Position numbers and translations under genes: made by a program. Of a DNA stretch of 64,000 nucleotides, positions 7,768 through 35,900 are shown piece after piece. This DNA comes from a virus. Lineage: Duplodnaviria > Caudoviricetes. The stretch's first letter is position 1, and every line of letters begins with the position of its first letter. The stretch covers positions 160,001 to 224,000 of the IMG/VR virus record IMGVR_UViG_3300031993_000004. One strand, written 5' to 3'. The notes beneath the pieces are model-generated. The model was not told the origin of the DNA and did no database searches. It worked only from the letters and a program-made list of their open reading frames with translations.

Positions 7768-10700
7768 ATGGCAAATATATTTGTCTATGAAAGCAGAATG
7801 TGGAAAGCGAGAGAAGAGTTCACCGCGGCAGGTGAATATTCTTTCACACTTCCAGCGGGTGAACATCTATTGATGTGTCATGGCGCTGCAGGCGGTTCCA
7901 CATATAATAATTATCATAATCTCGGCGGTGTTTCATACGGCATCATCAACTTGAATCAAGCTACACCAATGCATGCATATGTTGGTGGTAATGGCGGAGA
8001 TCCAGGTGTAAATGGATATGACATCGGTGATGGCGGTTATAATGGTGGCGGTTCGGGTGGCAGAGCATACTATAATAATGCATCATACAAAGCCGGTGCT
8101 GGTGGTGGTGGAGCATCTGATATTCGTATCCACACACCTGGCGAAATGTCACCTGATGAACCTTACACGCCGACGATTCCATCCGGATACAAACGTGTGG
8201 AATATTTAAATGTAAACAGTGCATATTTCAATACTGGATACATTGCAACAGAAAACACGACGTTTGTTTTTTCTGTTGAATATGAAACGAAGTCGAGTTC
8301 AAACACAGAATATGCGATACTCGGTACACAATCTGGACAGAATACAAATCCTGGTTGGGCCGTGTGGTTAAACTCATATTACGATAATACCCCGAAGATG
8401 GCATCCATCTATGGAACCATGGAATGGGGTTCAGGTGCGTCGGCTGGTGTGTATATGATTCCAACACGTATACCATCAAACACCCGTGCTGTATATCAGG
8501 TTGACAAATGGGGCACGTTCGTAAACGGTCATCCATTGTGTTACAATTCTGACATCACCGGTTCGCCGCAATCAGATCAAACAATCATTTTCTGTTGTGT
8601 AAGACGCGCAAATAGTATCATGTCAGCACGTATATTCAACGGTAAAGCATATTATCTGCGCGCATTTGAATACGAAAATGGTGAACATGTGTTGAAGATG
8701 GAGTTGATTCCGTGTATCCGTTTGTCCGATAATGTATGCGGATTCTATGATACGCAAAACGACACGTTTATCCCACGTATTCAGTACCAAGGTGATGCAT
8801 CACCCGGACCTGCTACAACAGGAACAATGGACAGACCGGTTGTGACTGAACGATACAAGCCTACGATTCCAGATGAATATACACAGCTCGAATATCTTCA
8901 AACCCCGGGTGGAATCTATTTTGATTCCGGTTATAATGCGAATGTAAACACCGCAATTACATTCCGTGATACCATCACCTCTGGTACCAGCAACGAGTGT
9001 ATTTTTGGTACGCAATCCGGAACAAATGTGAATCCAGGATGGGCATGTTGGCAATACATGAATGGATCATATCTTGGATTGGCATCCATTTATGGTACGA
9101 TGAGCTGGAGTGAGTCATACTTGTATTCAACTGGAATCCCGTATGGCTATTCCGCGTTCTATCGTGTTGAAAAAGATCGGACATTCGTGAACTTGAAACA
9201 ACTTTCGAGTTACGAGCCGTCTGGTACACCCGAACCAAATCGTTCATTGTTCATCATGGCCTGTCGACGTGAAAATGGTTTTGCCGGTAATGCTATCACT
9301 GGTAAGCTGTATCACTTCCGAATCTATGAGAAACAAGCTGACGACACATATGAACTGGTACATGAGTTTGTTCCATGCAAACGCGTATCGGACGATGTGA
9401 TCGGTTTGTATGATACAGTGGCAGATCCGGTTTCCGGTGATCATCAGTTCCTTGAACCGATTTCTTCCGGAAATGTGTTGACTGCGGGACCGACAGGAAA
9501 TTTCCCAATCGTTGACTATGACGGTACAGATGTTAGTGGTGCCTCGGGTACAGATCCAGCCGTGTATGCGTCGTTGAACACACGCATTATGGTTGCAGGC
9601 GGTGGTGGTGGCGGACTCCCATGGACCAATAATTCGGTTGAGAACTATCAAGACAATCGTTTGTATTTAAATTATCTCGGATATGCCGGCCTCGGCGGTG
9701 GTATCAATGGTGGATTCCGTGAGATTCGCACAAATGCCACAGTCGATCGCATCTATGCAACACAAGATTCTGGTGCATCTTTTGGCTTCGGTCAAAGTGG
9801 AAGAAATTCTGCTCAAAATAACTACTATGGATACAGTGGTGCATCCGGTGGTGGCGGTGGATGGTTTGGTGGTTATGCTTCAACCAGTACCGCAACATAT
9901 ACCGACGCATCCGGTGGTGGTGGTTCCGGATATGTGTTAACGAGTTCTTCATATATTCCCCAGGATTACATGGAGAATTATCAACCATATCAGATGACAA
10001 AAACGTTCATGGGTGGAGGATATGCAGAATCCGCATGTGTCCGTGTATGCGAACCATGCGAAACACCACATGCTGGTGATGTCATCACCATTTATGGTTT
10101 CGGCAAAAAACAACGTATTGATCTTCCACCTGGACAATATCGTTTAAAATGTTGGGGTGCATGCGGTGGTGGCTACTATAATGCGACATATATCGCACGT
10201 GGTGGCTATGCTGAAGGTGTCTTGACATTAACAACACCAGCTACATTGTATGCATACGTCGGTGGTTCTGGTATGTATCATAATATGATCTCATATGACT
10301 ATACATATCAGATGCGTCCTGATTTAAGTTTCAATGGTGGTGGTGCTGCTACGTTGTACGGACAGCAGACCGCATGTTATTATACAGGATTCCCCGGTGG
10401 TGGTGCATCAGACATTCGAATCAATACAGATTCATTGAATGCACGTGTTATTGTTGCTGGTGGTGCTGCTGGCACTGCTTGTTGTTCTGGTTCAATCCTT
10501 TCAAAAGGCGGCGTTGGTGGTGGTACAACCGGTGGCGAAGGTATATATCCAAACCAACAATCACGAAACTGCTATTTGTCAGGTCCTGGTACACAAACTG
10601 GTGCGGTGCCAGCTGAGCTCGATGCAATCATGGGTGGTTTCGGATATGGCGGAAATTCGTCAGGTGGTGGAACACCATATGTGTCAGCCGGTGGTGGCGG

Positions 10701-11370
10701 TGGATGGTACGGCGGTGGATCATCCGCAAGAATTTACGGAAATAATCAGTCGTACTATACAGGTCCAGCACATGGTGGATCAGGTTATACATTCACCGAA
10801 GGATCATACAAGCCAGACGGGTATTTGTTGTCCGATGATTACAAACTGACAGAACCATTACTTGTTGCTGGTGGTAATGATCTTCCACTCGGTGTATCCA
10901 AGATCGTGATTGAAGTTATCGATACAAAGATCGTTCGTGTCTTGTGTCGTGACCAATATGGAATCAAGTACTACGATGAAGACCTTGGGCGTTGGAAAGT
11001 CATTCTTGATGCAGAGCTGAGTCCTGAGTTGTTCATGGAATATGGTTCATTGAACATGAATTCTGATGAAGGACTCGATGACAACTACGAGCTTTTGATT
11101 TACGATCCGGAAGATACGACTTCAAAGCTCGAAATGAATGTCGTTCCAAATGAACAGACAATCACGAATGAAACAATGACTGATATCACAATACGTGATA
11201 TGTCACAAAAACTTGACTTCGATCCTTCTGTGTATGACATCAACATCACCGCACGTCGTCAAACACTTTCTGTCGGAACGAAGATCACGACAACCTTCAA
11301 AGTGAAAAAGAAGACGCAGACTGATGATACTGCGAAGGTATTTTACGTCACATACTCCGACGGAAATTGA
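7768..11370 (+). CDS. Glycine-rich tail fibre / receptor-binding protein with two ALK/LTK-type glycine-rich domains and two inserted lectin-like repeats
   Basis: Duplicated motifs LPxGxYxLxCxGAxGG, GGGASDIRI, RIxVAGGxxG, GGGGGWxGG. Two ~220-aa repeats begin PTIPxxYxxxEYL and end ExxPCxRxSDxVxGxYDT. Confidence 0.75.
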   Translation: MANIFVYESRMWKAREEFTAAGEYSFTLPAGEHLLMCHGAAGGSTYNNYHNLGGVSYGIINLNQATPMHAYVGGNGGDPGVNGYDIGDGGYNGGGSGGRAYYNNASYKAGAGGGGASDIRIHTPGEMSPDEPYTPTIPSGYKRVEYLNVNSAYFNTGYIATENTTFVFSVEYETKSSSNTEYAILGTQSGQNTNPGWAVWLNSYYDNTPKMASIYGTMEWGSGASAGVYMIPTRIPSNTRAVYQVDKWGTFVNGHPLCYNSDITGSPQSDQTIIFCCVRRANSIMSARIFNGKAYYLRAFEYENGEHVLKMELIPCIRLSDNVCGFYDTQNDTFIPRIQYQGDASPGPATTGTMDRPVVTERYKPTIPDEYTQLEYLQTPGGIYFDSGYNANVNTAITFRDTITSGTSNECIFGTQSGTNVNPGWACWQYMNGSYLGLASIYGTMSWSESYLYSTGIPYGYSAFYRVEKDRTFVNLKQLSSYEPSGTPEPNRSLFIMACRRENGFAGNAITGKLYHFRIYEKQADDTYELVHEFVPCKRVSDDVIGLYDTVADPVSGDHQFLEPISSGNVLTAGPTGNFPIVDYDGTDVSGASGTDPAVYASLNTRIMVAGGGGGGLPWTNNSVENYQDNRLYLNYLGYAGLGGGINGGFREIRTNATVDRIYATQDSGASFGFGQSGRNSAQNNYYGYSGASGGGGGWFGGYASTSTATYTDASGGGGSGYVLTSSSYIPQDYMENYQPYQMTKTFMGGGYAESACVRVCEPCETPHAGDVITIYGFGKKQRIDLPPGQYRLKCWGACGGGYYNATYIARGGYAEGVLTLTTPATLYAYVGGSGMYHNMISYDYTYQMRPDLSFNGGGAATLYGQQTACYYTGFPGGGASDIRINTDSLNARVIVAGGAAGTACCSGSILSKGGVGGGTTGGEGIYPNQQSRNCYLSGPGTQTGAVPAELDAIMGGFGYGGNSSGGGTPYVSAGGGGGWYGGGSSARIYGNNQSYYTGPAHGGSGYTFTEGSYKPDGYLLSDDYKLTEPLLVAGGNDLPLGVSKIVIEVIDTKIVRVLCRDQYGIKYYDEDLGRWKVILDAELSPELFMEYGSLNMNSDEGLDDNYELLIYDPEDTTSKLEMNVVPNEQTITNETMTDITIRDMSQKLDFDPSVYDINITARRQTLSVGTKITTTFKVKKKTQTDDTAKVFYVTYSDGN

Positions 11371-11384
11371 GGAGGTGAAAGCAC

Positions 11385-12641
11385 ATGAGTGAGCATTTGC
11401 TCCCTGTAAAGACCGGAAACGAACAGTTTCCGGTCACATACAGGAACATTGGATATGGTGTCGATAGCTATTATTGCGGAATCACGTATGAACACAATGC
11501 CATGTTGTTCTGTTTAAAACAAAACCATTACAACTCAAACCAGTCTGCGACATACAACGGTAAGGCATTTATTGACGTCATCAATCTGTTTACTGGTGAT
11601 ATACGTCATTATGCGGAACTTGATTACTTCACTGATCTGGACCAATCAGATATTGGTGGTATTGTCGTCGATGATAATTATTTATATATATCCAACGCAT
11701 GGACCAATACAGACAGTTATCGCCGTATATTCATATTCAAGTTGAAAGATTGGAGTAGCCCATCGTTACAGCTTGAACGTGTTGGTGCCTATAAATATAG
11801 CGGTGGTTATTATGCTGCCACTGGAAAACTGATTCAGTGTGATAGAAACACATTGGTCTCAATGACACGAACAGATCTGATATTATTCGATATCAATCAC
11901 CGTGCATATATCCCGTATGCACATGGGTTTGGTAATGATATCCGCGATTATGCTGTTGGAAACAAGTATATCGTGATAACAAAAGATGCCAATTCAACGC
12001 CAAATGTCAGATTGTTTAATCGATCGACGAAAGAATTCACATCAGTATCGTTACCAACAACAGGTGTTGCCAGTGTCGGTTATTACGGCGGAAAGTATTT
12101 CTTTGCCAATGCAAATTATTTGTACATCATGGATGAAGAAACACTTGAAATTTTGACGACAAAGAATATTCCGTGGACAAAAGCCGCGGATCTCTGTGTA
12201 TCTGATCATGCAGTATATGTCATTCAAGATAATTCCGCATATGCGTACATCTATGATTATGAGCATGATGAAACGCAGAAGTTCATGCTTTCATGGACGA
12301 TTCCGACCACGAACACCAGTAACATTACACGATGCTGTGTTTCAGAGAACTTCTGGTTTATTTACCGGAACACACTGATGTCATGTGACTATTCCGGATA
12401 TTCAAAATACAACTTTGGATACAAGTATGAATCCATCGTTGTATTGTGTAACATCTCACAAATCCAGAAGTTCACATACGACTCAAGGTTCGTCACGTTT
12501 ACGGAAACATTTATGTTCGTACATGACGGAGATCTCGAATATACATTCGAACCCGTTGAAGATCAGGAACATATCAAATCCGTTTCGATTTCGAAATCGG
12601 ATTATCGTTTCATAAATAGCATTCAATTCAAATCAGAATGA
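11385..12641 (+). CDS. Tail-associated beta-rich (propeller-like) protein
   Basis: Aromatic/Asn-rich repeated short beta strands; located in the tail fibre operon; RBS GGAGGTG. Confidence 0.55.
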   Translation: MSEHLLPVKTGNEQFPVTYRNIGYGVDSYYCGITYEHNAMLFCLKQNHYNSNQSATYNGKAFIDVINLFTGDIRHYAELDYFTDLDQSDIGGIVVDDNYLYISNAWTNTDSYRRIFIFKLKDWSSPSLQLERVGAYKYSGGYYAATGKLIQCDRNTLVSMTRTDLILFDINHRAYIPYAHGFGNDIRDYAVGNKYIVITKDANSTPNVRLFNRSTKEFTSVSLPTTGVASVGYYGGKYFFANANYLYIMDEETLEILTTKNIPWTKAADLCVSDHAVYVIQDNSAYAYIYDYEHDETQKFMLSWTIPTTNTSNITRCCVSENFWFIYRNTLMSCDYSGYSKYNFGYKYESIVVLCNISQIQKFTYDSRFVTFTETFMFVHDGDLEYTFEPVEDQEHIKSVSISKSDYRFINSIQFKSE

Positions 12642-15825: not shown

Positions 15826-18800
15826 ATGAATGAAATTACACAACGCACCGGCTCGATCTTTGATGAGCATCCGCAGTTGCGAACATTCCGTGAAAATTTC
15901 ATGAAACACCATCCGGATGTAAACTTTGATGCGAAGAATTTGTATGTGATTCAATCATTCAACCAAGATGGTGAACTGACTGATGAACATTACGGATTGA
16001 ATCTGATCACCGATGGTGGTCTTACTGCGATGAATGCAAACACCAACAACACCAACGGAAAACTTGCACTTTTGGAAGGTGTTGAAGAAGCTTCGTCTGT
16101 GTTGGAATATGCTTTTCCAACATATACTGCAATAATCAATAACACGTCAACTGACACCGCTAATTCTGTGTATCCTATGGCGTATGATTCGACAACAGGG
16201 ATTGTAACGCAACATGCATCCAAAACAAAATGGATATATGATTACAATATCGATGGTATCACAAGAGACATCGAAGTGAATTGTATCATATATTATTACA
16301 CTGGCACAGGTGCCGGCGGCTTCAACAATACCCCGGTCGCAAAGGTCACAACGTATGATGTGAACGGTCTGCCAGCATCATTCACCAAACATCTGAATGA
16401 AAAGATGGTCATCACGCTTTATATTGTGAATTCTTTTCATGAGGATTTGATTGATGATGCTTATGACCAAGGTATCTACATTACAATGAATCCTGGTAGA
16501 ATCGCGGGAATAGGCTCTGGATCAAATATATGGGCTAAACAGTGGATGTGTTGGAGTTCCCTTTACACCGCTTATGATGCGACGGACAACAGTGCATATA
16601 CCAAAACATATACGTCATTGAGTAATTTGTCATATTATTCGGAATCAAAGTATATGCAACAGAACGGCGAGATGACTGATTCCAATTACTCAGGTTGGAC
16701 ACTCATGACAGATCCGAGATGTTTCTACAGTAGATCAATGCTCAGGTTTGGAAACTGGTATTCATCCGGATTCAGTGATGGAGGTGTAATACATATCACT
16801 GAAGAGATGAAACTTGCCACCCCGGAAGAGATCGTGTGCGATACTGTATATACGAATAACTCAGAAACAGGATCACTGTCAAACACATTCGGTTTATGTG
16901 CGTTCGCTGTCGAGTATTGCCAAGGAATGATCCCTGTCGCAGATTTTTCAATATCAGCAGTAAAGGGCTACAATTATACGACACATGCTTGGGATATCGA
17001 TATCTCGTTCATTGATGAGCCTGATGCTTATTATGACAATCCATTTTGTCAGTCTAGACTGAATGTCGGTATAAGTGGAGCGACTCCACAGTGGGACAAT
17101 TATGTGTACACAAACCCGCGTGCAAAAACAATCACTGGACGACCACCTGCCGTACCTGTAACTGCTCTTGCGCCCACTGCTTCAAAAGTGTATACAATGT
17201 ATGCCACTGATAAATGGTGGGATGTAAGTTCATGGGAGCTGATTGCAAACAGAAATGCCATTCCGCAATCGCTCCAGAATAAGAAGTATTTCATCTCATC
17301 TGGTGGTGACAATGATACCCTGATACCAACATATGATCAGGCGGTTCATCGTTTGAACGTCGGTACGGAACATACCGTGCTGAATACACCGGCGGCACCA
17401 TATTGGGTACAAGGATTCAGACCCATTATCAACAAAGATGATGGATGGATTCTTGTTCAGGATCATATCCTGTTCATGAACGGTAACGATGTTGCTGCAT
17501 CGTATCGTCTTCATGGTCCTGAGATGGTTCCATGGATGTATTATAGTACAAGATGGGAATACGCATATCAGAATCTGTATGTGTATGATGGTACGGATTA
17601 TGTGTTGAACACAAGTCCAACGTATAACTCCAGAACGACGTATTATATTGATGGACTCGACGAGTATACGATTCGGTATAATGTCGGAAATAAACTGCTC
17701 GTTGGCTCTCATGTTGGAACATACAACACCGGGTATCCAACGAAGCTTCGCTTGTATACAATCATTGATGCGTCTACTCCACCAACATACATTGACATCA
17801 CGGTTGATACAAACACGACTAACCGCCAGTATTTCTCTATGTATTCTGGTTCTCAGAGTGGATACTATGTCATTCAGGATCAGCAGACACATTGTGCGAA
17901 TATCATATCTCTTGCAGATGGTTCTGTTGTGAAGCTTGAGAATGTCATGTACTGCTTCGCCGTCGAGTATTCGAATTATTGTGTGTACATGGATTACAAT
18001 TCAAGCCCAATCATGTTCCATGTATACGACATGACGACGAATACAATCAGGAGTGACATCATATTGCCGTCGGAATATGCAAACATTGTGTACATGTGTG
18101 GCTGGCGTGATTACGTGTACATCAAATCGACATCCGGTACGTCGTCTTATGTTAACATCATTAATGTTGAAGATGGTTCTATCAACCTGAGTAGCGTTGT
18201 AATTCCAAACGTGTTCCCATCATTGACATATAACTCCGGTAGTGCAGTTGCCAACGCATGGAGACTCAACATGCTTGTCGGTCAGATGTATACAGAAGAA
18301 TGCATGATCATTTCACAACCGTGGCAAGGATCGAATTCTCCAATTGTAATCAAATATTCTGACCCTGAAACTACATTTGATTTGTTCAAAAACGGTTATC
18401 TGAATGAACGACCGATTGATGCATATTTCGAACGTAATAACTACAATGGAAAATCGGGTAGCCTTGTGTCATATATCGTACATGATGAGCAATCCATTTC
18501 CCAATCAAAGTTGTTGCTGGTGAATGCTTTGGGTACACAGGTTGGATACCAATCTGCAACGTCCAAGGAGTACTGGATATACGATTCGTCTGAATTCTAT
18601 CCGTCCGTGTTGGATATTGGTCTTGCAATCGATTCTGGTTCTCCAACGAATCTGTGCCGTTTTCACGGCATGAAAACCACGGATGCAACTTATTCTCACG
18701 GCGCACTTGTGTACTGGAACAACGGCATCATCCGAATTGATAAGAATGGCGATGGGGTGTGGCGTCCGTTGCAATGGTTCATTGCTTCACAGGTAACTGG

Positions 18801-19368
18801 CACAACGAATACAATCCAGGCATACAATAACCCAAAGAAGATCGGACATAAATCAATCAATATCTTCAAAACCAATCGTGGTATCATTCAGCACACGCAA
18901 GCACCACGGTCAACTGGAGATATTCAGATGGTGTTCAAACACGATGATTGTTTCTATAACAATTATGGTCCATTGCCATCAGGTGCAAATTTTTACAAAG
19001 TGCTCAAGGGTGAAGTGATTGGACCATATGGTGAGATCATCTCTGTTCCAAACGGAACGACTATCCGTGTTGAGGTTGTACCTGCTGATGGGTTTGAGTT
19101 CTTGGTTGGTGCATTCAAATGGTATCTCCAAGATTTCACCCTTTCATACAACACCGATGGTGACATCAGCAATTCTAGCATTGCTTGGACTTCGAGCACT
19201 GCAACAGCTGACGACAAAGATCAGCAAAATGGTACCGCAATCACACTGACGCGTGATATTGCTGTGCTTGGTATCGGTATCGGTATAACCGTAAACACGC
19301 CACAAGTGCTGACTGCAACGATGATCAAGAGCATCAAAATCACAACGGATCCACATTTGTCGACATAA
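15826..19368 (+). CDS. Tail fibre/baseplate-attached structural protein (paralog of 12656..15280) with extra C-terminal domain
   Basis: NLYVIQSFNQDGELTDEHYGLNLITDGG, YATDKWWDVSSW, LQNKKYF and VTGTTNTIQAYNNPKKI align with the paralog. Confidence 0.65.
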   Translation: MNEITQRTGSIFDEHPQLRTFRENFMKHHPDVNFDAKNLYVIQSFNQDGELTDEHYGLNLITDGGLTAMNANTNNTNGKLALLEGVEEASSVLEYAFPTYTAIINNTSTDTANSVYPMAYDSTTGIVTQHASKTKWIYDYNIDGITRDIEVNCIIYYYTGTGAGGFNNTPVAKVTTYDVNGLPASFTKHLNEKMVITLYIVNSFHEDLIDDAYDQGIYITMNPGRIAGIGSGSNIWAKQWMCWSSLYTAYDATDNSAYTKTYTSLSNLSYYSESKYMQQNGEMTDSNYSGWTLMTDPRCFYSRSMLRFGNWYSSGFSDGGVIHITEEMKLATPEEIVCDTVYTNNSETGSLSNTFGLCAFAVEYCQGMIPVADFSISAVKGYNYTTHAWDIDISFIDEPDAYYDNPFCQSRLNVGISGATPQWDNYVYTNPRAKTITGRPPAVPVTALAPTASKVYTMYATDKWWDVSSWELIANRNAIPQSLQNKKYFISSGGDNDTLIPTYDQAVHRLNVGTEHTVLNTPAAPYWVQGFRPIINKDDGWILVQDHILFMNGNDVAASYRLHGPEMVPWMYYSTRWEYAYQNLYVYDGTDYVLNTSPTYNSRTTYYIDGLDEYTIRYNVGNKLLVGSHVGTYNTGYPTKLRLYTIIDASTPPTYIDITVDTNTTNRQYFSMYSGSQSGYYVIQDQQTHCANIISLADGSVVKLENVMYCFAVEYSNYCVYMDYNSSPIMFHVYDMTTNTIRSDIILPSEYANIVYMCGWRDYVYIKSTSGTSSYVNIINVEDGSINLSSVVIPNVFPSLTYNSGSAVANAWRLNMLVGQMYTEECMIISQPWQGSNSPIVIKYSDPETTFDLFKNGYLNERPIDAYFERNNYNGKSGSLVSYIVHDEQSISQSKLLLVNALGTQVGYQSATSKEYWIYDSSEFYPSVLDIGLAIDSGSPTNLCRFHGMKTTDATYSHGALVYWNNGIIRIDKNGDGVWRPLQWFIASQVTGTTNTIQAYNNPKKIGHKSINIFKTNRGIIQHTQAPRSTGDIQMVFKHDDCFYNNYGPLPSGANFYKVLKGEVIGPYGEIISVPNGTTIRVEVVPADGFEFLVGAFKWYLQDFTLSYNTDGDISNSSIAWTSSTATADDKDQQNGTAITLTRDIAVLGIGIGITVNTPQVLTATMIKSIKITTDPHLST

Positions 19369-19380
19369 TTCAGATATCTG

Positions 19381-19400
19381 ACATATATATTATTACTATG
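19381..19400 (+). promoter_or_regulatory. Putative phage early promoter driving the intergenic RNA
   Basis: ACATATATATTATT-ACTA-TG, the same motif as at 3716 and 36661. No RBS or ORF follows it. Confidence 0.65.
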
Positions 19401-19628
19401 AACGAGAAGAAACTGACGCGTTCCGGGATCAAAGGTTTGATGTCTAACGTACCTCCCGGGTGTCCAACTATGACGACGCGTAGATTGCATTGTGTTTCTG
19501 ATCGTTCTATTCAAAATGCATGAATGAAATGCGAGTTTGAAATTCACAAATCATCGGACAGATGGTCATGCCGTACGGGCGTGGTGAAAGGATACTCGTA
19601 TTTTCATTCATGTGTTTATTTTTTTTTT
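19400..19628 (+). ncRNA. Candidate novel two-domain structured non-coding RNA
   Basis: Domain 1 is closed by 19400-19413/19494-19507; domain 2 by 19516-19536/19594-19615 with a three-way junction. Two loop-loop complementarities, promoter upstream, long T tract downstream. Confidence 0.7.
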
Positions 19629-19635
19629 GATGAAA

Positions 19636-19661
19636 TGATGTGGGGCGTAAGCCCCACATCA
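19636..19661. terminator. Hairpin terminator between convergent units
   Basis: TGATGTGGGGC-GTAA-GCCCCACATCA just past the stop of the minus-strand baseplate gene. Confidence 0.8.
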
Positions 19662-19670
19662 ATCTCATTC

Positions 19671-22600
19671 TTATATGATATTCAATACAATGTTTGAATC
19701 AGAGAGAACGAACATTTCCGGTACATACCGTTCAAGTTCATTCTTCGGCATATCGTCCAATTCATCCCACCGTTGAACAATCGCCTGATAATCGGCATTC
19801 ATATAATGTCCATTCAGAAGTTTCTTCTGGTTGGTGTACCAACCTTTGAACTTCAAGAATGCAACATTTGGATGTTCCTCAAGCTGTTGAATCAGCTGGG
19901 AGATGTAAATGTTGTTGTCCATCGAAATCATATCAACCGGAGTATGCACAGTTGTGATGCGGTTGAAGTATGACTTGATCATCTGACGAACTTCGTTCAG
20001 TGTGTTTGTCGACAATGCAGGGTTGTACAACTTCAAATCGAACTCAATCTGGACATCCAAATCCGGCCAGAATGCAGGCGGATCCAGAGTTTTGTCAACA
20101 TCAGCAACATATGAGTGTGGGAGACCATAAGTTGCAATCAACTTGCAATCCAGATAGTTATTACCTTCCAAGCGTTTGAAGATAACTGGTTCAATTTCTT
20201 TATGCACTGTCGTGAATGCATTCACGAATGACTCGAACATATCAGAATTCATCATCCGAGCTTGCACAAATGGCATGAGCTGCACCTCAATCGCACTGTT
20301 GACAGATGTTTGAGAGAAGATCTCATCGATCTGTGCAGGATAAATCGATGTGTTGTTGTACACACGTTCCCAGTCGACATTTCCAATATACGGAGCTTCT
20401 GCAAGATCTTCCAATGTCAAACGCAATTCTGTCATGAATCCGGTAGACAATTCCGGAACTTCTGGATTTGTTCCGTATGTATGAATGATGTCATCCAACT
20501 GCGACTTCATATCACCCGCAGCGTTCTTGATGTCTTCAAACGAAAGTCCGGAGTCATCAATGGTACCGGTGATGATGTGATATGCATACTGTTTGATTGT
20601 ATACAGGTTCTTCACAGTCGGATCATATTCACCGAGTTCAATCAGTTTGTCGTATGCTTCAATCTGAACTTCTGACGGCTGCTGATATTCACCGAAGTTT
20701 ACAACACTCCGCATTTCCTTCAGCTCTTGTACAAGTGAGAATTGATCAATGTTCCACTTGTCTTGGAGACGATATCCCTTGAACGAATCATCGCCGTCGA
20801 TTGGTGATTCCAACGTCGCATCTTCTGACTTGAACAGAATATTCATTGTCAGTTCAGGTGTTGTAGCATCGACTGTCACGATCTTCGAAGAGTTTGTCGA
20901 AACCCATGAGCCGCCGCCATATTCTGTAGAAGCAATTTTAATTCGGTTATCAACATCAACCATTTTGTTCAACGGATACATCTGCGTATCGAAACGGATA
21001 CTGCCATCAGATTCAATCTGAACTGGCTGCATTTCAACACGTCCGGTTGTAATTCCGTCAACCTTTGCTTCCAACACGACACGCATGTTGTTTTTCACAA
21101 GCTGCAGTTGATCAGATACCATATAGAACAACGGAATGTTTGTGTTGCTCATGACGGCAGACAGTGGCATTTTATAATATGCGACTGCACTTTCTGATGC
21201 GGTCGGTTTCATATCGGCATACAAGATGATGCTCTTGCCATTTACCTCATTCAAATCGAATCGACAGGTACCATTGCCCAAATCAATTGGTGTATACGGC
21301 GTATAAATATTCGCAGCATTGCTGATTTGATATTGAACCGTGATACCATTGCTGTATTTGAGTTGGAAGTAAATTGTCGGTGCATACGACTGTCCGATAC
21401 GGTACAGCTTGGTTTCGCCATATTTTGTCAGACTGGTTTCAAACACATCATTCGAAACTGTCATAGACTCGAGCGTACCATCTTCTTGACCATCTTTCAA
21501 CCGCAATTCATAATAATTCTGCGACGGATATCGCTGGAACGAAATCGGATCCGTATCTTCAATTGCCGGATAGATATGGAGTTCCGTATCACCGGTGACC
21601 TTGACTTCTTCACACGGTCCATTTTCTCCCCACAATTCATTGCTGCCCTTGACGCCAGCAAAGCTATCACTGACTGCGATTGGATATTCTTTTTTCTCCG
21701 GTCCAGAATAATCTTCAATTCTCAAACCAGACAATGCCCACGTACCATCATTGTTACGGGATTTTTCTGTTACGCACAGATATGTCGTGTTCGGATTGAA
21801 TACAGTATATTGCTTCTTCGGATCCTGAACAAGAATCGGAATCATCGCAGCATACATGTCGACCGGTTTCACGAAATAGTTCCACATGATATCCGGGAAT
21901 GACGGTACTGCAGCATTCCGTCTGAAATGCTTTACGAATTCGGAACCGACATACGATGGTGCCTGATTCGGAATAATAACCGATTCAATGTTGTAGTAAT
22001 CCTTTTGATATGTGCGGACAATGTGAACGAACGACGGGGTTCCATGATAAATGATACTCTTATCCTCAGCACTCAGTGATGTATCCTGATATGCAAATGG
22101 GGTATTAACAATCGAAGCTGTTGCTGTCGTATTCACCCATGGGTTGAAGTATCCAATGGCAAATGGTGATTTCTGAATACGAATACCGAATGGATTTGCA
22201 AACAGGAAATCTTCATCAAAGTTTGCCGTGGTAGAAGCTGTTTCCACCTGTTCATTTGTTGTAACGACAAGCGGTTTCACAGTATACCGATTGGATTCTT
22301 TGTTTGCGTAAACCCATGCCCACCCTGGCGGAATAATGATTTCATTTCCATTCGGAGAAATGATTCCATCGTTGCTTCCATACAGAACACGATATGGGAT
22401 TCTTCCATGTAATGTGTTCGTTCTGTAAACATCGCCGTTGGGATCTGTCAATGCAATGAATCCGCTCCAAATTCTGCCCCATGGATCATCTCTCCGTTTG
22501 AAGAAGAACGGATACAGAATCTGTTTGAACAGAAACGTCTTGAACCATTCATAGATGTCATGGTCGGATGAAATAACATTTGCAGTGTTATACGCTTCAA

Positions 22601-23675
22601 TCGTCTCTCTGCGAGTCGTTTCATTCGTTCCAATGTTTGTACCTGAATGGCTTCCGGATGTTACAAACGCGGACTTCGTGACATTTCCGTTGTTGGTGTA
22701 CTTGTTCGTCGATGTGATGATCGATACAGACTCTTCTGTCGTAAAAGATGAGAAGTTCGCAGCCTTTCCATGACATGTGTACACCGTGAACACGAATGAC
22801 GAGTTTAGTTCCGGAACAAAGAAACGGTTTCCGTTCATTTGGAATTTGAAACGAATCGTTTGTGGAGAGTCCATGATGTAGTGCACATACGGAAGCTGAT
22901 CACTAACATCCGAGTGAATTGGCAGAATGTGATCTTTGTCAAGATACTGCTCATTGCCAGATGCATCGACATACTTCACATCAAATCCAGCAATATGATT
23001 CTGACATGTGATGACAAAATCATCATTCGGGATTCCATTCGTCATGTTGTTGACGGACGTGTGTGTCTGCCGCTCGAACTCGGACATCTGAACGAAGATG
23101 TGCAACCAATCCGAAGATGTCCGATACAGAATGTATGGCTTCTTGTTGATTGCGATCGAATTCTGCTCGTCCATATTCGTATACTGAATATTCCACGTCG
23201 GATTCTCAGTATTCGTAAATTGGATCAACACGTCATAATCCAACGAATAAATCGATCCATTCGCGAGATTAATCTTCGTATTTTTATCCAATACGAATTC
23301 CATCAAATTTCTATGCTGCGGATTCTCTTTGGCATTCTTAAACAAATCCGACAGTTTCAATTCGATCATGAAATTGCAAACTGATGGAATTGCGAATGAA
23401 TAGCCGATGTTGAAGATCGCCGCATTCGCATATATGGAATCGGACAGCACTGCTTTTGTGATAAATGACTCATTCAGATAGAATGCCGATGTAAATGCCA
23501 TGTTCTCGAGTGCCTGTGACATGTACTCAGATGCAACCGAGAAGAAACCACTGTTCAAAACGTTCAGCGGAATGTCATGGAATACGCGCGGCATCAGAAC
23601 TTCCTGAATGTATTGCTTTGTCTTCGAATCATCGGAATAATTCTGCAAAACAACATTGGGATCTTGTGTCGCCAT
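19671..23675 (-). CDS. Baseplate wedge protein (T4 gp6-like N-terminus, jumbo-phage type)
   Basis: ESFITKAVLSDSIYANAAIF and ...SGTNIGTNETTRRE...VISSDHD resemble gp6/baseplate wedge motifs; C-terminal IYISQLIQQLE. RBS AGGAGG. Confidence 0.65.
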   Translation of the reverse strand: MATQDPNVVLQNYSDDSKTKQYIQEVLMPRVFHDIPLNVLNSGFFSVASEYMSQALENMAFTSAFYLNESFITKAVLSDSIYANAAIFNIGYSFAIPSVCNFMIELKLSDLFKNAKENPQHRNLMEFVLDKNTKINLANGSIYSLDYDVLIQFTNTENPTWNIQYTNMDEQNSIAINKKPYILYRTSSDWLHIFVQMSEFERQTHTSVNNMTNGIPNDDFVITCQNHIAGFDVKYVDASGNEQYLDKDHILPIHSDVSDQLPYVHYIMDSPQTIRFKFQMNGNRFFVPELNSSFVFTVYTCHGKAANFSSFTTEESVSIITSTNKYTNNGNVTKSAFVTSGSHSGTNIGTNETTRRETIEAYNTANVISSDHDIYEWFKTFLFKQILYPFFFKRRDDPWGRIWSGFIALTDPNGDVYRTNTLHGRIPYRVLYGSNDGIISPNGNEIIIPPGWAWVYANKESNRYTVKPLVVTTNEQVETASTTANFDEDFLFANPFGIRIQKSPFAIGYFNPWVNTTATASIVNTPFAYQDTSLSAEDKSIIYHGTPSFVHIVRTYQKDYYNIESVIIPNQAPSYVGSEFVKHFRRNAAVPSFPDIMWNYFVKPVDMYAAMIPILVQDPKKQYTVFNPNTTYLCVTEKSRNNDGTWALSGLRIEDYSGPEKKEYPIAVSDSFAGVKGSNELWGENGPCEEVKVTGDTELHIYPAIEDTDPISFQRYPSQNYYELRLKDGQEDGTLESMTVSNDVFETSLTKYGETKLYRIGQSYAPTIYFQLKYSNGITVQYQISNAANIYTPYTPIDLGNGTCRFDLNEVNGKSIILYADMKPTASESAVAYYKMPLSAVMSNTNIPLFYMVSDQLQLVKNNMRVVLEAKVDGITTGRVEMQPVQIESDGSIRFDTQMYPLNKMVDVDNRIKIASTEYGGGSWVSTNSSKIVTVDATTPELTMNILFKSEDATLESPIDGDDSFKGYRLQDKWNIDQFSLVQELKEMRSVVNFGEYQQPSEVQIEAYDKLIELGEYDPTVKNLYTIKQYAYHIITGTIDDSGLSFEDIKNAAGDMKSQLDDIIHTYGTNPEVPELSTGFMTELRLTLEDLAEAPYIGNVDWERVYNNTSIYPAQIDEIFSQTSVNSAIEVQLMPFVQARMMNSDMFESFVNAFTTVHKEIEPVIFKRLEGNNYLDCKLIATYGLPHSYVADVDKTLDPPAFWPDLDVQIEFDLKLYNPALSTNTLNEVRQMIKSYFNRITTVHTPVDMISMDNNIYISQLIQQLEEHPNVAFLKFKGWYTNQKKLLNGHYMNADYQAIVQRWDELDDMPKNELERYVPEMFVLSDSNIVLNII

Positions 23676-33551: not shown

Positions 33552-35900
33552 ATGGCTATTCTGGGCAAGGACAAGGGAAGCCAGAAGAAACTGGATTCCG
33601 CAATGCTCGCGATCAATTCCATGCTCAATGAAATCTATTCGAACAAGTCTTCGGATGAGTATAAGATGAAGGGTGACATTACAAAGTCACCCTCATACTC
33701 TAAGATTGAAGAGATGGTTGTTGATCTGAAAACTCTGAAAGGGTACAGCCAGGTCGATGCTGCTGACATCGGGAAGATGTTCAATACACTGCATCGCCCA
33801 ATCTTCAAAACCATGGTGAAGGAATATATCATGGAACATAACGACAGAAACACTGTATTCACTGCTTTGTTTACTGTCGGCTATCGTCTGCTTGTCGGTG
33901 AACTGACTCGCGTGTTTGCATCCACCACCGCAACGGACAAGGGTGTCGTGTACAAACCTGACAAAGTTTCTCGCAAGTCCGATGCAACCGCTATGATCAA
34001 GCTGTATAATGATCAGCTCGAAGCAAAAATCGACAAATACATCAAGGATGCGAAGGCCTATCCACAAGAGGCTCCTGTCAATGAGTCTATGTTGATTATG
34101 GCTGTTGACGCGATGTATCAGGAAGAGTACATCCAGGAGATGACCAGTCGTCAGAAAGAAGTCATCAAAGGTACTGTTCTTGGTACGATTCTGCTTCCGG
34201 TATCCGTTGGTCTCATGTTTTCTGCCGGCGGCATACCTTTCACCCTCTTGCATCTCATTATGACAGCTGGTCTTGGAGCAGTGGCTGGCGGAAGAGGTCA
34301 AAAGCAAAAACACAAGAACATTGATAAACGCGATGTTGAAATTGTTGACGATATCAAGAATATCGTCGAGTTTCTCAGACAGCGCGCTTCGTCAGATGTC
34401 GAATCGGACATGAAGGAATTCAAGAAACATGTCAAGAATCTCCGTCAGAATTGTTCAGATTCCAAACTCGTTGTTGAGAAAGAGAAACGGCATTTCTATG
34501 CGGATATGAATGAAGCATGTAATGCCGTTCTTAAAGATCTGAAAAAGGACGCTTCGAATGAGGAAGTTATGTCGAACTTCCTTGAGAAGATGGTGGCCCT
34601 TTACGAAGCCATTACCGGAGAAAAGTTTGGTGGTGACTACGCCAACAAAACTGTTCAAGAGTCTGCTGTCGAAGGTGAATTCATTCAGGAGTTCACTCTG
34701 ATCGAACTGATTCTCACTTGTGCGGCAATCGGCGTTGGCTCCTCAATTGTCAGCGGAGCAATTCGCAGACATAAGGACAAGAAAGCGGTCAAAAACCAGG
34801 AGCATGAGAAAGAGATGTATGAACGTCTCAAGAATGTCACAAAACTGATCGAATCAACCAAAGACTTTGCGGTCATGAAGCCTGACTGGAGTTATGATGA
34901 ACCGGATGATGACGGTATGTCAGACACGTTCCATGACTGGTTCGAAGACCAGAATGACTTCAAATACCATTGCGACCGCATCGTTGATGAGCTCGGAAAA
35001 CTCGGTGAAGTTCTGACCTTCTGCAAAGAGAAGAAGACTGCTCTGTATCTTATTCTCCCGCAAGAAACCAAGGACTATACCGAATTCATCTGGGAAATGA
35101 TCGATCCGTTTACTCTGATGAGCATCGACTATGACAAGCAGAAGTTCTATACTGCCGAAGACATCGAACCTGTTAAGAAGGCTTGTGAGGAATTCGAGAC
35201 CAAGACCCGTGAATTCATGGAAAAGGTCAAGGGAGCCTTCCAGGATATCGTCAAAGAAGCTGCCGAAAACCTGGCAGACGATGATGATGATGCTGAGCCT
35301 ATCACTGAAGAAGACAACGATGTCACAAACGATGTTGACGTTGATGCAAGCGGTGATAATGACACCGTTCAGGAAGGTGTGCTCGGTACAATCGCATCCG
35401 GAATGTCTGAGGGAACCAAAACTCTTACCTCAATTGCAGGAAGCCTCACGATCATCGCCGCATCTGTCGGTATTATCGCAGGTCTGTTCAAAGGTATCAA
35501 CAGCTTCTTCAAGGGCATCAACCCTGTGGCAGATGTCAACGCGTTGTTCATGAACTCTTATGAGAGCAAGATCGACAAACTCGCATCTGTTTCCAAACTC
35601 TATGACGAAACCAAGAAGGCATACGAGGAATACATGAAAATTCCGGCAGCTCAGCGTAACAAGAAAGTCGAGAGCAAATATGTCAAGAACATGGAGAAGT
35701 ACAACATCAGTATGCAGAACCTCGCGGCACAAATTGAACACTACAATCAGCGTGCTAAGAAAGAATCTGCAGATGTTGTGAACAACATCGAGACCAGACT
35801 CCCGAACGGAGATGTGAAACCTGCGGAAAAGAAGGTTCCCGCTCCGAATGTGGAGAGTAAGCCCGATGCTCCACAGCAGGATGATGACTTCCAGTTCTAA
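33552..35900 (+). CDS. Putative internal head/ejection polyprotein with hydrophobic modules
   Basis: Repeated (I/V)QE sites, each followed by a hydrophobic Gly/Ala-rich segment. Confidence 0.55.
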   Translation: MAILGKDKGSQKKLDSAMLAINSMLNEIYSNKSSDEYKMKGDITKSPSYSKIEEMVVDLKTLKGYSQVDAADIGKMFNTLHRPIFKTMVKEYIMEHNDRNTVFTALFTVGYRLLVGELTRVFASTTATDKGVVYKPDKVSRKSDATAMIKLYNDQLEAKIDKYIKDAKAYPQEAPVNESMLIMAVDAMYQEEYIQEMTSRQKEVIKGTVLGTILLPVSVGLMFSAGGIPFTLLHLIMTAGLGAVAGGRGQKQKHKNIDKRDVEIVDDIKNIVEFLRQRASSDVESDMKEFKKHVKNLRQNCSDSKLVVEKEKRHFYADMNEACNAVLKDLKKDASNEEVMSNFLEKMVALYEAITGEKFGGDYANKTVQESAVEGEFIQEFTLIELILTCAAIGVGSSIVSGAIRRHKDKKAVKNQEHEKEMYERLKNVTKLIESTKDFAVMKPDWSYDEPDDDGMSDTFHDWFEDQNDFKYHCDRIVDELGKLGEVLTFCKEKKTALYLILPQETKDYTEFIWEMIDPFTLMSIDYDKQKFYTAEDIEPVKKACEEFETKTREFMEKVKGAFQDIVKEAAENLADDDDDAEPITEEDNDVTNDVDVDASGDNDTVQEGVLGTIASGMSEGTKTLTSIAGSLTIIAASVGIIAGLFKGINSFFKGINPVADVNALFMNSYESKIDKLASVSKLYDETKKAYEEYMKIPAAQRNKKVESKYVKNMEKYNISMQNLAAQIEHYNQRAKKESADVVNNIETRLPNGDVKPAEKKVPAPNVESKPDAPQQDDDFQF

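Follow-up and report, generated by a model that had tools for sequence, protein, structure and literature searches.

We wanted to determine what is encoded in the short gap between two convergent genes of an uncultivated jumbo phage. The phage is an IMG/VR record of 277,583 bp with 43% G+C, estimated to be 100% complete. The stretch analysed here, called the window throughout, is 64,000 nucleotides long and corresponds to bases 160001-224000 of that record. The gap measures 302 bp (19369-19670 of the window) and separates an ORF of 1180 aa on the plus strand (15826..19368) from an ORF of 1334 aa on the minus strand (19671..23675). An earlier note, made from the letters of this DNA, had proposed that the gap holds an independently transcribed two-domain RNA of a possibly new class, folded by a double loop-loop pseudoknot. 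Comparison with related phages confirmed that a folded non-coding RNA of approximately 220 nt has a gene of its own here, at 19400-19628 (+).

The genes that flank the RNA are baseplate-like, and neither is a portal or terminase gene. For the 1334-aa protein there is a match to phrog_18960, and the most similar clusters that have a name are annotated as "baseplate wedge", which we treat as a lead only. Pfam and PDB sequence searches with the 1180-aa and the 1334-aa proteins gave no match. We also considered whether the gap itself encodes a small protein. The sole ORFs inside it are of 41 aa and 57 aa, and we rejected this reading because both of them meet early stops in a related locus (L004). 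Outside the RNA, at 19637..19660, lies a GC-rich hairpin, GATGTGGGGC-GTAA-GCCCCACATC, which we assign as the terminator of the convergent 1334-aa gene. It has a 4-nt loop and a T run on one flank, and its stem sequence covaries between phages. Nearly all the relatives examined, and among them most of those without the RNA, have an equivalent hairpin at this position; in most RNA-less relatives it stands alone between the convergent genes. Elsewhere in the window (7768-11370), a 1200-aa protein strongly matches the ALK/LTK glycine-rich domain (PF12810, E = 7e-70, three stretches), which is unusual for a fibre-like protein of a phage.

The plus strand of the region (19400-19630) has a folding energy of -81.1 kcal/mol, which none of 200 shuffles reached (z = -4.87), while the minus strand folds less well (z = -2.76). 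For the homologue in L004 the corresponding value is z = -7.0. Every helix listed in the earlier note was found in its place. Among the helices we counted 33 G-U/U-G pairs and 3 A-C/C-A pairs, therefore the functional strand is the plus strand and the molecule is RNA. Rfam 15 at gathering thresholds gave 0 matches in the whole window, and in an E-value scan of 19330-19700 no score exceeded 19.9 bits, with the threshold at 102. ARAGORN reported 0 genes in 19200-19800, in agreement with the earlier statement that a tRNA or tmRNA signature is absent. Neither the RNA region nor the 1180-aa neighbour had a BLAST match among GenBank phages, and literature searches did not bring up a description of such an RNA. 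The region does not have the arrangement of a riboswitch, as the gene that follows is convergent and no co-oriented gene lies downstream. The proposal of an independently transcribed two-domain RNA from an undescribed family is thus supported by its conservation and covariation, by the asymmetry between the strands and by the lack of an Rfam match. We regard these structured phage RNAs as a genuine new family, whose fold is well supported and which was found in one group of uncultivated jumbo phages.

Searching IMG/VR, JGI metagenomes and the Logan/ENA protein index for relatives of the 1334-aa protein yielded many loci of related jumbo phages. There were 12 distinct full-length RNAs, namely those of the window, L057, L021, L004, L051, L053, L054, L055, L058, L003, L059 and L040; the copies in L034 and L052 are truncated. 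All members occupy the same locus and are convergent with the 1334-aa gene, and all have the long 3' hairpin and the T run. A DNA-pattern scan of IMG/VR gave, beyond two known relatives, only chance matches inside coding sequence. Genome scans with a covariance model (R3, see below) detected a single copy of the RNA in the genome of the window (G000) and in G005, G006 and G007, and no copy in G001, G002, G004 and G008 (96-100% complete). The mean core-gene identity to G000 is 56% for G001, which is without the RNA, and 53.5% for G007, which has it. Since the RNA-less G001 is closer to G000 than the RNA-bearing G007 is, the RNA gene was lost or transferred at least once.

Two loci without the RNA carry other inserts at the same site. 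The short insert in L044 (7309-7480, minus strand) contains a promoter-like box, two C-GGACAA-G hairpins and a T run, and the one in L046 (7498-7700, minus strand) contains the hairpin CCCC-GCACGU-GGGG. This position, downstream of the gene for the 1334-aa protein, looks like a hot spot where small RNA cassettes with a common loop motif are found.

Domain 1 (19400..19507, +) was delimited in an alignment guided by a covariance model. The model, R2, was seeded with the window and L057 in the revised structure, homologous loci were searched with filters off, and the top 11 matches constitute alignment A11. As read from these sequences, the architecture of domain 1 is a stack of P1 and P2 that leads into a three-way junction, with one arm formed by P3, a bulge, P4 and loop L4, and the other by P5. 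The closing helix P1 pairs 19400-13/19494-507 and is followed by P2 (19416-21/19476-81) and P3 (19422-28/19454-60). An A-rich bulge, UCAAA (19429-33; UCAA(A) in the family), separates P3 from the covarying P4 (19434-36/19451-53), and P5 is a hairpin of the form UGUC/GACR (19461-64/19472-75). P1 closes domain 1 fully, and in the folds we saw no alternative pairing of P1 or domain 1 with domain 2. The segment AGAUUGC (19482-88), between P2 and P1, is invariant in alignment A12. Loop L4, UUGAUGUCUAACGU (19437..19450), has the family consensus UUGUCUAAUC in the same alignment and a length of 9-15 nt in the family; displayed by P4, it is the most conserved unpaired stretch of the RNA. Intramolecular pairings of L4 with AGAUUGC (AAUC/GAUU or RUCU/AGAU) were considered; each of them is either invariant or not universal.

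In A11, which was fitted to the structure and for this reason inflates pairing numbers, 95.0% of 340 cells are standard pairs, compared with 75.1 +/- 1.3% when partners were shuffled (0 of 500 as high), and both sides change in 29 of the 34 pairs. When partners were slid by 1-3 columns, pairing went down to 38-50%. We had to base the pair counts on the alignment fitted by the covariance model because MAFFT put P1 and P4 in the wrong places. Compensatory changes can be read directly from the raw sequences, both in P2 (ACGCGU/ACGCGU, UGUGU/GCGCA, GUGCU/AGCAC, CGCGG/CCGCG) and in P3 (UCCGGGA/UCCCGGG, UCUGGGA/UCCCAGG, UUCGGGA/UCCCGAG). P4 is GGU/ACC in the window and occurs in relatives as GGC/GCC, GGGU/ACCC, GGG/CCC, CUCG/CGAG, ACGG/CCGU and CAGG/CCUG. 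Model R3, built from A11, detected L059/L060, which had been held out of training (31 bits, E = 4e-4), and found nothing on 27 loci of relatives without the RNA. A single-sequence model, R1, which included the hairpin of the earlier note, missed L003 and was superseded by R2 and R3.

Details of the fold drawn previously had to be revised. The TCAA/TTGA hairpin is not conserved, and the covarying P4 stands in its place. The tandem GA/GA loop reported in P1 is present in the window, but L021 and L053 have ordinary pairs at this position (G-U/A-U or G-C/A-U), so that P1 is one helix of 9-15 bp. P5 is variable: L003 and L059 have an enlarged version, and L058 has none.

Upstream of domain 1 we observed a phage-type promoter box, ATATATAT-T-ATTA-CTAT, at 19383-19399, in an element that spans 19372..19399 (+); the predicted start is G19400. 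In all 11 homologues with upstream sequence, a box ATATATAT-N-ATTA-NNAN directly precedes the first G of P1 with fixed spacing. The motif at the start of the gap had been called a phage promoter, and its distribution agrees with that: the 277.6-kb genome has 15 copies of ATATAT-N-ATTA where Markov simulations predict approximately 1, and 8 of the 15 copies fall in the 4.5% of the genome left non-coding by a crude ORF set. Approximately 11 copies fit the longer consensus TTTC-N2-ATATATAT-N-ATTAT, and immediately after most of them there is a hairpin. A scan of the RNA region for sigma-70-type promoters gave no match. We infer the transcription start site, and likewise an "early" timing of expression.

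The 3' end of the RNA resembles an intrinsic terminator. It consists of domain 2, whose stem of approximately 23 bp ends at 19617, and a run of 10 T (19619..19628, +), which had earlier been counted as 11. The same layout of stem and T run was found in all homologues. A simple terminator scanner misses this end because the apex of the stem is branched.

Near-identical promoter boxes, TTTC-N2-ATATATAT-N-ATTATTAT-G, number approximately 11 in G000, most of them with a stable hairpin at +1. In addition to the one at 19383 of the window, they are located at 112, 55912(-), 85707, 87129, 92149, 125707(-), 240651(-) and 277448 of G000. The unit of promoter and hairpin, e.g. GAAGGAAGATAATATCAACCTTC, is near-identical at 112, 55912(-) and 277448, and the presence of box copies at both ends of the record suggests terminal redundancy. 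At 85710-85950 of G000, a consensus promoter with a 5' hairpin is followed by approximately 225 nt without any ORF of at least 50 aa; this may be a second promoter-driven non-coding RNA.

Domain 2 (19514..19617, +) has a basal stem of approximately 23 bp that opens at its apex into a three-way junction, from which two abutting hairpins arise. The first (19550-66) carries the loop GGACA at 19556-60, and the second (19567-83) the loop GUACG at 19573-77. MFE folds of 12 out of 12 members have a long basal stem (9-23 bp) of lineage-specific sequence. Its cap bears one or two hairpins with a G-N-A-C-R loop, usually two that abut. The loops seen were GGACA, GUACG, GUACA, GGACG, GCACA, GAACA and GAACG. 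In approximately 20 hairpins, G at position 1, A at position 3 and C at position 4 are invariant, while position 2 varies freely and position 5 takes A or G. An A at position 5 fits a GNRA-like fold; the G, found there in about a third of the hairpins, does not suit a strict version of it. The pentaloops are mostly closed by C-G, and their stems covary (AUCAUC/GAUGGU, CAUGCC/GGCGUG, CAUGUC/GACAUG, CAUAUC/GAUAUG and more). In L057, the closest relative, the two loop types are swapped between the hairpins. A genome-wide scan found 45 GNACR hairpins where 40 were expected, which is no enrichment. The longest one outside the RNA gene is a perfect 10-bp hairpin at 11411-11435 of the window, GACCGGAAAC-GAACA-GTTTCCGGTC, just inside the annotated start of the ORF 11385..12641.

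The earlier note had paired both loops of domain 2 with unpaired segments of domain 1. Such an RNA could be a compact pseudoknot if the pairs form within the molecule, or an oligomer similar to phi29 pRNA if they form between molecules. Both 5-nt complements do exist in the window (GGACA/TGTCC and GTACG/CGTAC), and compatible pairs persist in L057, where the loops have changed places between the hairpins and one pair is G-U. Neither pairing, however, is conserved across the family. The segment CGUAC (19448-52) overlaps the 3' strand of P4, and its A/G polymorphism (CGUACC/CGUGCC) tracks a U/C change in the 5' strand of P4 (GGU/GGC) and not the loops. The segment UGUCC (19461-65) is the 5' strand of P5, a helix absent in L058. 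L004, L021, L053 and L055 are mismatched in the middle of the pairing. A perfect 5-nt partner in domain 1 was found for 3 of 18 loops, compared with 1.95 expected, and 85 of 300 shuffles equalled this count. With G-U pairs allowed, 14 of 18 loops have a 5-mer partner, compared with 8.6 +/- 2.4 in shuffles (5 of 300 as high), but the partner positions scatter and many of them are inside helices. Because the partners are not conserved, loop-loop pairing belongs to the sequence of the window, and partly to L057 and L054, rather than to the family. The RNA also has no match to the pRNA of Rfam. We consider an RNA organised by these loop-loop pairs very improbable.

The best explanation in our opinion, with a probability of roughly 0.4, is that a stand-alone RNA made from a phage promoter acts in trans as a protein scaffold or decoy. 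The phage-specific promoter would initiate transcription at or near G19400; with such a start, helix P1 would seal the 5' end of the RNA. Domain 2 and the U run would end the transcript. The RNA might then act in trans as a scaffold or decoy that binds protein, with the GNACR hairpins as boxB-like protein-recognition modules and domain 1 as a further surface for binding or targeting. Three observations suggest that the GNACR hairpin is a recognition module, for which a protein is the simplest ligand: the invariant loop positions are placed on covarying stems, a comparison of 18 domain 2 loops with their own domain 1 gave no conserved RNA partner, and the motif recurs in the different insert of L044. 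The lack of GNACR enrichment elsewhere in the genome and the G at loop position 5 in about a third of the hairpins speak against this reading.

A possible protein partner was sought with a phyletic profile, in which 274 ORFs of G000 were compared with genomes with and without the RNA. There were 21 ORFs restricted to RNA-bearing genomes, and these genomes are not independent of each other. A Pfam scan of 20 of the 21 (254732-255172 was left out) gave no significant match, and a PHROGs search with six of them gave none. The candidate is a basic protein of 130-163 aa, with 144 aa in G000 (P0121:20-163, G000 34567-35001). It is small and is present in 4 of 4 RNA-bearing genomes, with a diverged copy in G005; no full-length match was found in four RNA-less genomes. 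It is 81% identical to the copies in G006 and G007, compared with core-gene means of 71.6% and 53.5%, and it has only nine clusters in an index of 5.8 billion proteins. The arginine-rich motifs of lambdoid N proteins grip boxB pentaloops. The N-terminus of the candidate, MKKRTKINRARRYGFGTWSQYKAWKR, is a predicted helix rich in Arg and Lys which, by analogy, recalls these motifs. An AF2 model of the candidate was weak (pLDDT 60) and gave no match in Foldseek. The copies in G006 and G007 are 100% identical, whereas the RNAs of these two genomes have diverged; therefore the genes of the candidate protein and of the RNA have different histories. This basic protein is, as judged from its sequence and occurrence, a candidate partner of the RNA.

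The identical 130-aa protein of G007 and G006 (L151 and L152, 2001-2393) is accompanied by ORFs that are also very similar. One of them encodes a small, paralogue-like protein whose N-terminus, MNWRKRKKLRKIA, is similar and likewise basic. Such identity between genomes with distant core genes suggests that co-occurring jumbo phages have recently exchanged genes.

The conservation of L4 allows another reading, which we regard as possible, though unlikely. The RNA could act in trans by base pairing, with L4, UGUCUAAUC, as a seed for a conserved host RNA such as 16S rRNA, or for a host mRNA; in the 16S version, it could modulate 30S subunits or initiation. L4 is complementary to what we take to be the universally conserved 790 loop of 16S rRNA, GAUUAGAUA, at positions 786-794 (the 785F/806R primer site). 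An unpaired stretch that is the most conserved of all and sits on a covarying arm would suit a seed; complementarity to 16S reaches 9-10 nt in L003, L059, L055, L021 and L058, and a G-to-A change in L004 and an A-to-G change in L053 both preserve the pairing. Against this, the 16S match was noticed post hoc and would arise by chance with a probability of roughly 0.01-0.06, the window, where L4 pairs over 7 nt, and L057 and L040 give only 6-7 bp, and L054 is without most of L4. Blocking of ribosomes would harm the phage too. In the phage genome L4 has no target longer than 11 nt, so that any target would be in the host. Searches of this genome with L4, the AGAUUGC junction, the P5 region and the loops gave only matches at chance level (9-12 nt). 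Protein binding and base pairing might also be combined in a so far undescribed phage RNP system, in which an abundant early RNA recruits or titrates a dedicated Arg-rich phage protein through boxB-like GNACR hairpins while the invariant loop UGUCUAAUC docks on a conserved host RNA. We find this combination quite improbable; if true, it would give the phage an RNA-guided means of acting on translation or on transcription termination in the host, with the 16S 790 loop as a possible dock.

We give little credence to a role in cis, as an insulator or terminator cassette that shields the baseplate genes from early read-through, or as the decaying remnant of a 5' leader. Such a role would agree with the position of the RNA between convergent genes, beside a second terminator, and with its being dispensable, as it is missing from four near-complete relatives. 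A terminator, however, needs neither a dedicated strong promoter nor a covarying 5' domain of 108 nt with invariant loops; moreover, the GC hairpin alone suffices in relatives, and unpaired nucleotides of the RNA are under visible purifying selection. A self-cleaving or otherwise catalytic RNA is extremely unlikely. The three-way junction of domain 1 has invariant junction nucleotides, but the ribozymes of Rfam gave no match, the tandem GA loop becomes Watson-Crick pairs in relatives and the genomic context gives no hint of processing. Neither the pRNA-like oligomer nor the ribozyme finds support, and an RNA that binds protein in trans is the reading that we prefer.

To our knowledge, few non-coding RNAs of jumbo phages have been characterised, and none from this uncultivated group. 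The RNA offers a gene model with promoter, predicted start and terminator, a fold backed by covariation, and two conserved surfaces, the GNACR pentaloops and L4. It also has a natural pattern of presence and absence and a candidate protein partner. These features make it directly testable, and a new RNA family can now be described from it. Binding of a phage or host factor by the loops, if it occurs, would add a new case of RNA-based host takeover or anti-defence.

Several known systems share features with this RNA. ROOL and GOLLD, from the Breaker/Weinberg motif sets in Rfam, are similarly phage-carried, defined solely by covariation and of unknown function; the RNA described here is far smaller, has its own precisely spaced phage promoter and its own terminator, and matches no Rfam 15 model. 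The CsrB/RsmZ sponges likewise present a recurring hairpin-loop motif on a stable sRNA that ends in a terminator, although their motif is (A)NGGA instead of GNACR, and here there are one or two copies only. With phi29 pRNA (RF00044) the family has in common that it is a phage-encoded two-domain RNA of approximately 170-230 nt with its own promoter, and that structure is kept while sequence diverges. It differs from pRNA in that a covariance-model match is absent, the loop-loop complementarity that defines the pRNA ring does not covary, the association with packaging genes is not seen, and the carriers are jumbo phages of 230-280 kb and not phi29-like podoviruses. The boxB loops of lambdoid phages are GAAAA/GAAGA in lambda and GACAA in P22. 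The hairpins described here differ from boxB in that they cap the terminator of a stand-alone RNA and not a nascent operon leader, boxA was not identified, C is invariant at position 4, and about one loop in three has G at position 5. They resemble boxB in having short stems with an invariant G-N-A-x-R pentaloop, possibly GNRA-like with one base flipped out, and in the co-occurrence of a small protein that, as in the boxB/N system, has an N-terminal helix predicted to be rich in Arg and Lys.
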